A stretch of 64,000 bases of DNA from Escherichia phage vB_vPM_PD112. The number at the start of each line of letters is the position of its first letter. Positions within the stretch are counted from its first letter, which is position 1. This document shows, in pieces, positions 8,197-15,289 of the stretch. The DNA lies in sequence record NC_054928.1. One strand, 5' to 3'. Position numbers and translations under genes: made by a program. The notes under the pieces are model-generated. The model was given only the letters and a program-made list of their open reading frames with translations. It ran no database searches and was not told the DNA's origin.

Positions 8197-9784
<1,588 letters not shown>

Positions 9785-9811
9785 AATAAAATGGGCCTTG
9801 CGGCCCACTCC

Positions 9812-11294
9812 TTAAAAGTATTTTTTAAAACTCATCATAACTTTATCATCAACATCATTATCAATCTGTGCAACAAGGTAAGATGACAGTTCTACTTCTT
9901 GTGGCGCGGATTGAACATTATCAGAATTAAGATATTCACGAATCCAAGGATATGGGTGTTTAACCGGAGCATCGGTAATTGGGCATGGAAGACCACACTG
10001 TTTCATACGAGATACAGTTAAGTAATCAATAAAGCTCCACATGCTATTTGTATTTAATCCAGGAACATCGCCATCTTTAAATAAATGAACTGCCCAGTCT
10101 TTTTCTTGGCGGTTAACTTCCATGAAAATATCAACTGCTTCTTGTTCACACTCTTGAGCAATTTTAACCCATTCATCACCATCAGTGCCAAGTTGAAGTT
10201 GACGAATAATATATTGGGTGCCTTTAAGGTGAAGCTGCTCATCACGTGCAATGAACTTCATAATCTTGGCATTACCTTCCATGATTTCCATGTTCTTATG
10301 GAAGTTAAAGGTACCGTTATGTTCGATTGAGCTCGCTAATTCTCAACCCGTTCTCTTATGAACTGCTACATATTACTATGCAGACCAGACTATATCACAA
10401 TCCCAGAGGGATTCTCCCCATTTCGAGTCGCTTGACCCTACGTCCGAAGACTAGTCGTTGAACCTTGCTTTGCAATTGTGCATCCTCTTAAAAGTATAAT
10501 CATTTATATTATACTAATTAAAGGTGCAAGCAAAACCTTGGCTGCTAGTTTTCCTATAAAGGACTTTCCAGCAATTAAAGGAGTTTTCGATAAACGTTAC
10601 CGTTTAAAGGCGCATTTTACGCAAAAGATACATAAAAACGAATAGCTTCTAAGGCATTAATAACGTGCAAACAGAGGTAAAGAGATTTCATTAAAGCACG
10701 TTTAGCTTCGGCTTCTTGTTTAATAGCTCGGTTTAAACGAAAATCAGCATCAGGAGATTCTTTAGCTAGTTCTACAAATTCTTTAGCATTTTCCCATTCA
10801 CGGGTTTTAATAAGAACATCATCATAATAACGCCCAATGGATTCAGCACGTTTCATAATAGCTTCATCTAATACAATCTCATCAAATACCTTCGATGGAT
10901 CAGTATAAAGATTTCGCATGATATGTGTATATGAACGGCTGTGAATAGTTTCACTAAAAGTCCACGTAGCAACCCATGTATCAAGGCTTGGGTCTGAAAT
11001 TAATGACATAAGTACAGCAGACGGCGCACGACCCTGAATGCTATCCAAAAGTGATTGATACTTCAGATTATTAGTAAAAATATTTTGCTGATACTGAGGA
11101 AGCTTATTAAACTGTGCAGCATCCATCATTAAGTTTACTTCTTCAGGACGCCAGAAAAATGATAAGGACTTCTCTGTAAGTTCTTCAAATACCTTATGTC
11201 GTTGAATATCATAACGTGCAATTCCAAGACCTGAACCGAAGAACATAGGTTCTGTTAAAACATCAACTGGATTTGTATTAAAAACTGTGCTCAT
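9812..11294 (-). CDS. nrdB: ribonucleotide reductase small subunit, split by group I intron: exons 11294..10619 and 10314..9812
   Basis: Exon 1 ends FYVSFA, exon 2 carries MEGNAKI...SDNVQSAPQEVE; predicted junction restores a Cys aligning with E. coli NrdB FA-C-SFAF. Confidence 0.88.
10315..10618 (-). other. group I self-splicing intron in nrdB, ORF-less (about 304 nt)
   Basis: In-frame stop after exon 1; 5' splice site follows U, 3' end G; core similar to td intron (GACUCGAAA..., CAGACUAUAUC). Confidence 0.75.
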
Positions 11295-11345
11295 AAATTT
11301 TCCACTTAGTTAATAGTTGGTGACTCGTCCATGAGTCAAATTATA

Positions 11346-13610
11346 TCATAATTTACAGGATGAACAATCTTCAGCTTTTGGAGTTTCTATTTCATAATCA
11401 TCAGTACCAGAACCATCACGGGTATTATGATAATAGAAATTTTTAATGCCATAATACCATCCGTATAGCATGTCATCAATCATTATTGACATTGGAACCT
11501 TTCCTTTTGGAAAAATCTGCGGGTCATAGTAAGTATTAGCAGAAGCAGATTGGCACACCCATTTCAACATAATAGCTACCTGCGTAAGATAAGGTTTATT
11601 ACCTTTCTTAGCTAATTTCCATGTATAATCATATAGATCTATGTTATGTTCAATATTGGGCACGACTTGATTAAAGGAACCCTCTTTTGACTCTTTAACA
11701 GAGACTGGTCCACGTGGAGGCTCGATACCGTTTGTACTGTTAGAAACTTGGGAAGATGACTCACATGGCATAAGTGCTGATAATGTGCTATTACGGATGC
11801 CAAAGAGCTTAAGGTCTTCCCGCAGCGCCGACCAGTCACAAACGTATTTTGGAGCTGCGATTTGGTCAATCTTTTTATTGTACCAGTCGATAGGTAATTC
11901 GCCTCGAGACCAACGAGTGTCTGAATAATATTCGCAAGGTCCTTTTTCTTTGGCGAGCTTAATGGATGCTTTAATGAGCCCATACTGTAATCTCTCAAAT
12001 AGTTCATGTGTTAAATCGTTAGCATCTTCATAAGAAGCAAAGTTACTTGCCAGCCAAGCTGCATAGTTAGTAACACCTACGCCAAGGTTTCGACGCTTTT
12101 TAGCTTTTTCTGCTTCAGGAACTGGATATCCTTGGTAATCCAACAGATTATCAAGAGCACGAACTTGAACTTCTGCCAATTCATTAATTTTATCTTGGTC
12201 TTGCCAATCGAAGTTATCAAGAACAAAGGCAGAAAGAGTGCAGAGGCCCACTTCAGCGTCAGGTCCATTCACATCATTTGTTGGAATAGCAATTTCACAA
12301 CACAAGTTACTCTGGCGAATAGGCGCCTTTTCACGAATAAACGGAGTATAGTTATTCGTATTATCAATGAACTGCACATAAATCCTTGCTGTTCCTGAGC
12401 GTTCAGTCATGAGCAATTCAAATAGTTCACGGGCTTTAATACGCTTTTTACGAATATTAGGATCTTTTTCTGCCGCTTCGTATAATTCACGGAAACGGTC
12501 TTGGTCTTTAAAATAAGAATAATAAAGTTCGCCACCCATTTCATGCGGACTGAATAAAGTAATGTAATCGTTCTTTCCGAATCGTTCCATCATTAGGTCA
12601 TTCAGTTGAACGCCATAATCCATATGACGGATACGGTTTTCTTCTACACCTTTGTTATTTTTCAAAACGAGAAGATTTTCAACTTCCAAATGCCAAATAG
12701 GATAATAAGCAGTAGCAGCGCCGCCACGAATTCCACCCTGTGAGCATGATTTAACAGCAGTCTGAAAATGTTTCCAAAAAGGAATAACACCAGTATGACG
12801 CACTTCACCTGTGCCAATCTTAGAACCTTCGGCACGAATCATACCAACGTTAATGCCGATTCCAGCTCGTTTAGAAATATACTCAACAATTGAAGCAGAA
12901 GCCTTATTGATAGACTTCAGCGAATCACCTGCCTCAATAACAACGCATGAACTAAATTGCCGAGTTGGAGTACGACATCCAGCCATAATAGGAGTTGGCA
13001 ATGAAATCTGTCGAGTAGATACTGCTTCATAAAAACGAATAACATGTTTTAATCTGTCAACAGGTTCATCTTGATGCAATGCCATTCCAATAGTCATAAA
13101 TGCAAACTGTGGAGTTTCATAAATTTGACCAGTGGTTTTATCTTTAACGAGATATTTTTCTTTTAATTGCATCGCCCCGGAATAAGTAAATTCCATATCC
13201 CGCTCATGCTTAATTTTTGATTCTAAAAATGTAATTTCTTCTGCTGAATATTTTGACAGCAGTTCAGGGTCATATTTACCTTCATTTACACAGTAAGAAA
13301 TATGGTCAATAAATGAACGTGGTTCATACTGACCGTAAACATGCTTACGAAGAGCGAACATTAAACAGCGTGCAGCTACATATTGATAATCAGGCTCTTC
13401 AACTGAAATAGAATTCGCAGCAGCCTTAATGACAATAGTCTGAATGTCATCAGTTGTCATTCCATCACGGAGATATGATTTAATATTTTCATATAATTCA
13501 TAAGGATCTACAGATGTTCCTTCAGCTGCCCAAGATAAAACTTTAATAATTTTTTGCGGGTCAAAGCTTTGAGAAACACCACTACTTTTGATAACATTAA
13601 TTAATTGCAT
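11346..13610 (-). CDS. nrdA: ribonucleotide reductase large subunit
   Basis: 754 aa, class Ia RNR catalytic subunit; T4 NrdA size and position. Confidence 0.95.
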   Translation of the reverse strand: MQLINVIKSSGVSQSFDPQKIIKVLSWAAEGTSVDPYELYENIKSYLRDGMTTDDIQTIVIKAAANSISVEEPDYQYVAARCLMFALRKHVYGQYEPRSFIDHISYCVNEGKYDPELLSKYSAEEITFLESKIKHERDMEFTYSGAMQLKEKYLVKDKTTGQIYETPQFAFMTIGMALHQDEPVDRLKHVIRFYEAVSTRQISLPTPIMAGCRTPTRQFSSCVVIEAGDSLKSINKASASIVEYISKRAGIGINVGMIRAEGSKIGTGEVRHTGVIPFWKHFQTAVKSCSQGGIRGGAATAYYPIWHLEVENLLVLKNNKGVEENRIRHMDYGVQLNDLMMERFGKNDYITLFSPHEMGGELYYSYFKDQDRFRELYEAAEKDPNIRKKRIKARELFELLMTERSGTARIYVQFIDNTNNYTPFIREKAPIRQSNLCCEIAIPTNDVNGPDAEVGLCTLSAFVLDNFDWQDQDKINELAEVQVRALDNLLDYQGYPVPEAEKAKKRRNLGVGVTNYAAWLASNFASYEDANDLTHELFERLQYGLIKASIKLAKEKGPCEYYSDTRWSRGELPIDWYNKKIDQIAAPKYVCDWSALREDLKLFGIRNSTLSALMPCESSSQVSNSTNGIEPPRGPVSVKESKEGSFNQVVPNIEHNIDLYDYTWKLAKKGNKPYLTQVAIMLKWVCQSASANTYYDPQIFPKGKVPMSIMIDDMLYGWYYGIKNFYYHNTRDGSGTDDYEIETPKAEDCSSCKL

Positions 13611-13880: not shown

Positions 13881-14144
13881 TTATTCACTACCCGACATAG
13901 ACGGCCCGCGCGGTGATAATTCGGCATATTGTTTTTCCGTTAAAACAGTAATATCGTAGTAACAGTCAGAAGAAGTTTTAACTGTGGAAATTTTATTATC
14001 AAAATACTCACGAGTCATTTTATGAGTATAATATTTTTTGCCATAAATGATAATAGGCTGATTTGGTCCTGGAACTTCTAGCTCACTTGGATTAGGAAGT
14101 GTAAAAAGAACTACACCAGAAGTATCTTTAAATCGTAAAATCAT
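13881..14144 (-). CDS. hypothetical protein
   Basis: ORF track, 87 aa; between td and nrdA. Confidence 0.45.
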
Positions 14145-14167: not shown

Positions 14168-15289
14168 TTACACTGCCATTTTTCCTTTAATAGGAGGGTG
14201 TGATTCATAACCTTTAAGAACGAAATCTTTAGGCCTGAGTTTAAGAACATATTTTAATTGTTCTTTAGTAGAAAGATAGCGGAATTTATAAGGTAGACCA
14301 CTTATTACCAGTTCACAAAGCTCTTTAGGTTCACGACGTAAAATTTCTTTACACTGTTCTACGTGATTCATATAGATATGAGTATTACCACCAGAAAATA
14401 TCAAATCTCCTGGAATAAGATTACACATCTTAGCTACAATATGAACTAACGCAGCATATGATGCAATATTAAATGGAAGCATTATGTTCAGATAAGGTCG
14501 TTAATCTTATCCCGGAATTATATCCAGCTGCATGTCACCATGCAGAGCAGACTATATCTCCAACTTGCTAAAGCAAGTTGTCTATCGTTTCGAGTCACTT
14601 GACCCTACTCCCTAAAGGGATAGTCGTTAGGCATTTATGTAGAACCAAAGTCCTACAATTTAGCACGGGATTGTCTACTAGAGAGGTTCCCCGTTTAGAT
14701 AGATTACAAGTATAAGTCACCTTATACTCAGGCCTAAATTAACCCAAGAAAACATCTACAGAACGTTGATACCACTGCAAATCCAAATAGCCATTACGCA
14801 CATTAAACTGATAGAACATGTGACAAGGCGGTAATGCCATTTGCTTAAGTTCAGCTGGATTCCATGCAGAAACAATTTGACGCCTATCATTCGGCAGTTT
14901 TTTAATACGATCAATAACTTCTATAATTTGGTCTACACCGCCAAAATCACGCCATTGTTTTCCATAAATTGGACCAAGTTCACCGCTATGATATCCTAAA
15001 TCTTTTGCTTGATTTTCGTAATTTTCATCCCAGACTGTTTTGCCTTGAATTAATGAATTATGTTGAATTAATCGCAAATCATTTACGTTAGTACTTCCTG
15101 ATAAGAACCACAATAACTCAGAAATACATGCATTCCAGGCGAGCTTCTTAGTCGTTACTGCAGGAAAACCTTTAGTTAAATCCCAACGTAATTTAGTACC
15201 GAACAAAGCAATTGTTCCTGTGCCTGTTCGGTCATCGGTTTCATAACCGTTTTCCAGGATATCTTTAATTAAAAATTGGTATTGTTTCA

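Follow-up and report, generated by a model that had tools for sequence, protein, structure and literature searches.

A group I intron in the nrdB gene of an Escherichia phage that very probably lacks the entire I-TevIII endonuclease gene

The nrdB intron of the T-even bacteriophages, its splice site and the endonuclease that it encodes are textbook material (PMC1865063, PMC2790892, PMC2988022). The I-TevIII gene of phage T4 is a deletion of the version carried by phage RB3, and the mobility of the T4 intron needs mobE (PMC2790892, PMC2988022, PMC1865063), the free-standing endonuclease MobE encoded next to this defective intron mobilising it in trans (PMC2790892). Decay of intron endonucleases among the T-even phages, and phage introns without an open reading frame (ORF) in general, are already known (PMC3984707). 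Full-text literature searches, with the T-even survey of Sandegren and Sjoberg (2004) outside their scope, found no description of a naturally ORF-less nrdB intron. Here we describe such an intron in a 64,000-nt stretch of DNA (the window) from Escherichia phage vB_vPM_PD112 (NC_054928.1), which is very probably a natural allele of the T4/RB3-type group I (subgroup IA) nrdB intron without the entire I-TevIII gene.

On the minus strand of the window, where all of the features located below lie, frd, td, nrdA, nrdB, denA and rnlA follow the T4 gene order, with nrdA at 13610..11346, denA at 9808..9374 and rnlA at 9357..8197. The 1.5-kb region around the intron is 100% identical to that of the Tequatrovirus Escherichia phage vB_EcoM_CE1 (ON229909.1). 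Between td and nrdA lies an ORF of 87 aa (13881..14144) with a full-length match to Pfam DUF5496 (E 1.9e-57), a conserved protein of unknown function. The coding sequence of nrdB is interrupted. Exon 1 (11294..10619, 676 nt), whose limits come from the ORF list, Pfam and comparison with T4, RB3 and phages lacking the intron, reads ...ALEAIRFYVSFA, after which the next in-frame codon is TAA; its 3' end in the RNA is ...UUU GCG U, and unspliced read-through halts directly at UAA. The second ORF fragment reads ...MEIMEGNAKIMKFIARDEQLH... and ends at 9812. Within it, exon 2 (10314..9812, 503 nt with the stop codon; direct reading and Pfam) opens with GU, which completes a Cys codon, and begins 304 nt downstream of exon 1, in keeping with the in-frame stop and the distance of about 300 nt given in the first-pass annotation of this DNA. 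The exon 1 fragment covers positions 9-141 of the Pfam Ribonuc_red_sm profile and the exon 2 fragment positions 177-271, indicating that both are halves of one gene.

The intron, recognised by its match to Rfam RF00028 and its identity to the RB3 and T4 introns, occupies 10618..10315 (304 nt). Exon 1 ends in UUUGCGU ahead of AAAAUGCGCC at the 5' border, and ACAUAACG precedes GUACC of exon 2 at the 3' border; in a longer reading, the same 5' border is paired with GAACAUAACG at the intron end and GUACCUUU at the start of exon 2. The 5' cut falls after U at 10619 and the 3' cut after the terminal intron G at 10315, the latter placed by direct reading and by intron-less relatives. The predicted joined exons read ...TTTGCGT followed by GTACCTTT, and the 676 and 503 nt make a spliced sequence of 1179 nt that is in frame, contains UGU (Cys) at the junction and encodes a product of 392 aa.

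Four independent checks, all made at the level of sequence, fix this predicted junction. The alignment to the T4 and RB3 nrdB introns that had been proposed as a check showed that identical flanking words enclose 598 nt in T4 and 1091 nt in RB3, and that the spliced frames of both are open, giving intact products of 388 and 392 aa in agreement with the 'joined' nrdB CDSs of their records. The insertion site (FYVSFA-C-TFNF), its flanks and the boundaries are identical in T4, RB3, HY03, S16, ER8 and SG1. A 120-nt query that joins 60 nt from the end of exon 1 to 60 nt from the start of exon 2 matched many intron-less Tequatrovirus genomes without a break, at 99.2% identity. The spliced NrdB gave one continuous alignment to E. 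coli R2 (1piy_A) over residues 3-388 (E 1.4e-124), and since this alignment passes straight through the junction (FYVSFACTFNF versus FYVSFACSFAF), the restored Cys would be the conserved one. An alternative 3' splice site at the point where the Rfam match stops (10366, ...AUGUAG) was rejected, because it would hit an in-frame stop and because the intron-less junction gives 10315. The first-pass annotation had named an intron at 10315-10618, a splice rule with U before the 5' site and G at the intron end, and a restored UGU Cys matching E. coli FA-C-SFAF. The coordinates were borne out by the boundaries common to T4 and RB3, the intron-less relatives and the R2 alignment; the U pairs with the G of P1 and a G stands at 10315; and the Cys was recovered in the open spliced frame aligned to 1piy_A.

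A covariance-model search, also put forward in that annotation, gave a match to Rfam Intron_gpI (RF00028) at 10635..10366 over the full model (positions 1-253), with 68.6 bits (E 2.7e-15) against a gathering score of 50, and a group I secondary structure with covariation in its helices was laid out from P1 to P9.2. P1 (10610..10622), seen by direct reading and by RNAfold, joins exon GCGU (10622..10619) to intron G6-C9 (10613..10610) in 4 bp, and places the last exon U opposite intron G6 in a U-G wobble at the 5' splice site that is invariant in 11 of 11 variants. P2 is the hairpin UAAACG-GUAA-CGUUUA (10591..10606), with compensatory double changes in three of its six pairs. The Rfam alignment and RNAfold locate the 5' strand of P3 (10583..10578) and P4 with P5 (10573..10543) within 10543..10583; the innermost P5 pair varies among U-A, A-U and G-C. 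P6 and its extension P6a/b/c (10462..10542), drawn from RNAfold and from alignment to RB3 and T4, are 96.6-100% paired, and the P6 loop is the location of I-TevIII in RB3 and T4. The 5' strand of P7, GACUA (10452..10456), pairs by direct reading with UAGUC at 10392..10388 and would cross P3 to give the guanosine-binding core pseudoknot. All five P7 pairs are standard and invariant; together, six P3 and five P7 standard pairs are able to form, both helices being invariant across the sampled variants. RNAfold further placed P7.1 (GUC-UUCG-GAC) and P7.2 (GGGUC-AAGC-GACUC) at 10425..10451, the latter with a compensatory change from U-A to C-G in phage DCP80. The 3' strand of P3 (10419..10414) and the P8 hairpin (10412..10400) lie within 10400..10419 on the evidence of Rfam, RNAfold and the variants, and P9 (10383..10366), P9.1 (10363..10350) and P9.2 (10348..10325) lie within 10325..10383 on that of RNAfold and compensatory changes. 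P10 comprises two pairs at most. Because P7.1 and P7.2 are present and the T4 record itself bears the label 'group 1A intron', the intron is assigned to subgroup IA, of which P7.1 and P7.2, lying between P7 and the 3' strand of P3, are typical extra helices.

RNAfold on its own recovered P1, P3-P6, P7.1, P7.2, P8, P9, P9.1 and P9.2 (-86.1 kcal/mol, z = -2.68 versus shuffles); P2 and the pseudoknotted P7 were not recovered in this run. Covariation was scored on 11 variants, namely the window intron and those of T4, RB3, BYEP01, SP21535, CJY920, DCP80, SG1, HY03, S16 and ER8, whose cores were aligned on the hand-built P1-P9.2 structure after the ORF segment had been taken out where present. With the P3/P7 pseudoknot included in that structure, 99.5% of cells over the 11 variants were standard pairs. 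Nine pairs showed compensatory change (three in P2, two in P9.2 and one each in P5, P6c, P7.2 and P9), while slid controls, in which the 3' partners were shifted by 1-3 columns, showed none, and the observed covariation values were attained in 0 of 500 shuffles. P1, P3, P4, P6, P7, P7.1 and P9.1 are invariant in this sample and draw their support from the model match and homology. A first hand-drawn register of the P6 extension (C89-G151 and its neighbours) was discarded, being broken by the natural polymorphism G151A, which fits the RNAfold register as a change of U84-G151 to U84-A151.

The ribozyme core is 100% identical to that of the RB3 intron, and we infer from this identity, with high confidence, a functional intron that would splice itself out at the junction described above. 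By the standard group I mechanism, and in view of the identity to RB3 and T4, the nrdB pre-mRNA would fold into the P1-P9.2 ribozyme; free guanosine would attack after the U of the P1 U-G pair (between 10619 and 10618), and the released 3' OH of exon 1 would then attack after the terminal G (between 10315 and 10314). Exon joining would create UGU (Cys) and an mRNA for the full 392-aa R2 protein, and a ribosome on the unspliced RNA would halt at the UAA formed across the exon-intron boundary. The GenBank record of CE1 holds two separate CDSs and no intron feature, as would suit an intron that no longer splices, with nrdB split or dead and the phage relying on the host reductase. Such a state is very unlikely, given a core identity of 100% to RB3 and 98% to T4, two intact exons matching the two halves of Pfam Ribonuc_red_sm, a spliced frame that is open over its full length, and base pairs that have been kept despite variation among relatives.

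Comparison with RB3 accounts for the small size of the window intron, which is identical to the RB3 intron on either side of a single gap. The heptamer ACAATTG occurs in the RB3 intron at positions 142 and 927 and in the window intron once, at 140. When the 785 bp between the two copies were deleted from RB3 in a simulation, 306 nt were left that differ from the window intron only by an AT dinucleotide, which falls in the P6 loop. The deleted segment is the I-TevIII gene, a 269-codon ORF in RB3 with a Pfam HNH_3 match; the first RB3 copy of the heptamer contains the annotated TTG start of this gene, and the second falls eight codons short of its stop. In the window, the single 7-nt copy at the deletion junction (10473..10479) includes the old I-TevIII TTG start codon. 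The repeat is not statistically unusual in itself, the RB3 intron containing 85 pairs of 7-mer repeats versus 75 in shuffles, and is noteworthy only by its coincidence with the deletion end-points. The pair sits, in AT-rich sequence, where deletion removes the ORF and leaves the 3' strand of P6 untouched.

No I-TevIII ORF was found in the intron, whose longest sense-strand ORFs are 26, 21 and 10 codons; the ORF-less status put forward in the first-pass annotation held, with no sense ORF above 26 codons and the 785 bp containing I-TevIII missing. The possible 21-codon remnant that it had pointed to (ATG at 10503) is out of the I-TevIII reading frame and was rejected as a fragment of the gene. 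What does survive of the coding sequence is the TTG start (10475) together with the final eight sense codons of I-TevIII (NCKARFND) and their stop; these eight codons now lie inside the 10-codon ORF MHNCKARFND, which begins at ATG 10483 in the I-TevIII C-terminal frame. The 26-codon ORF runs from the old TTG start at 10475 through P7-P8, both small ORFs lying within 10395..10483. Although they stand behind the retained I-TevIII ribosome-binding site, these 10- and 26-codon ORFs are probably meaningless, because the ribozyme core dictates their sequence.

Signals for expression of the lost gene have outlasted it. Besides the TTG start within the deletion junction, the window intron retains, upstream of that junction, a Shine-Dalgarno sequence and a hairpin that would mask the ribosome-binding site: the Shine-Dalgarno AAGAGG (10484..10489) is paired with CCUUU, as such a hairpin masks the ribosome-binding site in the T4 intron endonucleases (PMC2988022). 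The late-promoter box of I-TevIII, whose role has been described (PMC2988022), is decayed, reading TATAAATG at 10501..10508 here versus TATAAATA in RB3, the difference being the loss of AT.

The retention of expression signals that serve no use, together with the repeat at the end-points, marks the short form as a deletion derivative and not an ancestor, and we consider it probable that the window intron arose by deletion of I-TevIII between the ACAATTG repeats. Loss of 785 bp from the P6 loop of an intron like that of RB3, with its endonuclease gene in place, would have taken out the ORF and spared all ribozyme helices, leaving orphaned expression signals that are starting to decay. The opposite polarity, in which a bare ribozyme intron was later invaded by I-TevIII and the window preserves the state before invasion, appears unlikely. 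Invasion of introns by endonucleases is an established model, as is collaborative homing (PMC2988022, PMC3984707), and three sequence backgrounds carry the short junction, one of them that of the diverged DCP80 (91% core identity). However, the Shine-Dalgarno, TTG start, masking hairpin and late-promoter box would have been kept without a purpose in the absence of the ORF, and the invading gene would have needed to come without its own start codon. The 100% match to RB3 at either side of the junction is what a recent deletion would leave, and a 7-nt direct repeat at the end-points is the usual mark of deletion by slippage or microhomology. The same ORF has been shortened by two further, independent deletions, one in T4 (598 nt) and one in SG1 (420 nt). 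A deletion that ends on a repeat could also be produced by the collapse of reads between the repeats during assembly or sequencing, the real phage carrying the full I-TevIII intron, and the related DCP80 record is poorly assembled and contains runs of N. An artefact of this kind is extremely improbable: 7 nt is much too short a repeat for assembly collapse, and the junction is present in five records that differ in flanking polymorphisms and in small indels (300, 304 and 309 nt). Deletion from an RB3-like intron remains our preferred reading.

The P6-loop sequence of the nrdB intron was found in ~125 phage records, and the ORF-less junction in five of these: CE1 and BYEP01 (304 nt), SP21535 (300 nt), and CJY920 and DCP80 (309 nt). 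The rest comprised ~30 T4-type introns, the intermediate SG1 and others with the full ORF. In IMG/VR, an exact-match search with the deletion junction gave no hit. Core identity to the window intron was 94-100% in eight compared phages, with the exception of DCP80 at 91%. Judged by informative sites the intron is a mosaic. In CE1, BYEP01 and SP21535 it resembles RB3 on either side of the junction. CJY920 combines an HY03-like 5' half (1 mismatch with HY03 versus 11 with RB3) with an RB3-like 3' half (0 mismatches), a combination with no ORF-carrying counterpart in the database. DCP80 differs from all others by 8-14 mismatches on one side of the junction and 12-16 on the other. Compared with the window, its exon 2 is 79% identical and its intron core 91%, the record being a gapped assembly. 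This contrast between exon and intron fits lateral spread of the intron, and constraint on the ribozyme could also explain it. An exon-1 identity of 63% for DCP80 was discarded as unreliable on account of a run of N in the record. This run lies in nrdB exon 1 (locus positions 600-680; record PQ671644.1), the annotation places a primase gene immediately upstream on the other strand, and the 141-kb 'complete genome' looks gapped or mis-joined.

These backgrounds would be compatible either with recurrent deletion or with one ORF-less allele that later recombined and diverged. It is possible, and on balance rather doubtful, that they record more than a one-off recent loss, in the form of recurrent ACAATTG excision across lineages or of one long-lived endonuclease-free intron. 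Recurrence might have involved RB3-like introns for CE1, BYEP01 and SP21535, an intron with an HY03-like 5' half for CJY920, and a diverged intron for DCP80; a single intron might have accumulated ~9% divergence and moved between phage genera without an endonuclease of its own. If true, either version would provide a natural and datable stage of the homing cycle in phages, at which the endonuclease has been lost and the ribozyme is stranded.

A neighbouring gene could in principle supply the missing activity. An endonuclease gene lies just upstream of nrdB in T4 and RB3 (mobE), in SG1 (hef-like), and in HY03 and S16. In the window, nrdA and nrdB lie only 51 nt apart (11295..11345) with no endonuclease gene between them, the downstream neighbour of nrdB is denA (EndoII), and a search of ORFs, annotation and Pfam matches found no candidate ORF for a mobE/hef-type gene near nrdB within 8.2-16 kb of the window. 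With I-TevIII missing and no mobE or hef beside nrdB, the window intron appears to have no evident means of homing. It presumably persists because nrdB would be restored by nothing short of a base-perfect excision, and it could spread only through ordinary recombination or co-conversion. In SP21535 and SG1, a ~1.6-kb ORF ends exactly at the nrdB start (locus positions 1-125), that of SG1 being annotated as a Hef-like homing endonuclease; the ORF-less or defective nrdB introns of these two phages might still be mobilised in trans.

None of the five short-allele records annotates the intron. Two give nrdB as two CDSs, another two leave it hypothetical or partly annotated, and in the fifth it is unannotated; the CE1 record (ON229909.1), which has no intron feature, labels nrdB exon 2 (9812..10291) 'major capsid protein'. 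The practical value of the finding is therefore in annotation, recognition of the intron giving back one intact 392-aa NrdB. The window intron is an ordinary variant of a textbook element, and the short allele leaves existing knowledge of group I introns unchanged. It offers a clean natural example for the life cycle of homing introns and extends a series of endonuclease decay after invasion, from the partial deletion of T4 through the larger one of SG1 to loss of the whole gene in the window and CE1. Splicing studies could also use the allele, as it stands, as a minimal nrdB ribozyme.

The same phage carries a second group I intron, in td (14741..14480, 262 nt; Rfam 73.8 bits), without the I-TevI gene. 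Its borders read CUUGGGU followed by UAAUUUAGG at the 5' end and ACAUAAUG followed by CUUCC at the 3' end; the T4 td intron is 1016 nt long. In CE1, BYEP01 and CJY920 the td and nrdB introns are both ORF-less, and the td introns of ~320 or ~445 nt in many other phages suggest several independent deletions of I-TevI. The kinship with the td intron that the first-pass annotation had seen in the core blocks was upheld, the nrdB and td introns of the window having 185 identical columns and long blocks in common, among them GUAGGGUCAAG-GACUCGAAA, GAUAUAGUCUG, the P9 hairpin and GAACAUAA-G. The td introns of this phage and of T4 resemble the nrdB intron in their homologous group IA core, helix order, P7.1/P7.2 and P9.1/P9.2, and differ from it in host gene, insertion site, P1 and P2, and, in T4, in an endonuclease of a different family (I-TevI, GIY-YIG; PMC2988022).

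The closest described relative is the RB3 nrdB intron, with which the window intron has the gene, insertion site and junction in common, along with 100% identity outside the deletion apart from the 2-nt AT indel; unlike RB3, the window has lost 785 bp, essentially the whole 269-codon I-TevIII ORF, and its promoter box is broken. The T4 nrdB intron (598 nt, with a defective I-TevIII) has the same site and junction and 98% core identity, and both are endonuclease-defective deletion derivatives of an RB3-type intron (PMC2790892, PMC2988022). T4, however, keeps ~97 I-TevIII codons after a different internal deletion, and its nrdB is adjoined by mobE, which mobilises the intron in trans (PMC2790892), whereas the window has neither such an ORF remnant nor mobE. 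Introns that take part in collaborative homing or are mobilised in trans by mobE differ from the window intron in having a free-standing endonuclease gene within recombination distance; the ORF-less ones resemble it in being bare ribozymes that sit in a conserved phage gene and are not mobile by themselves (PMC2790892, PMC3984707).
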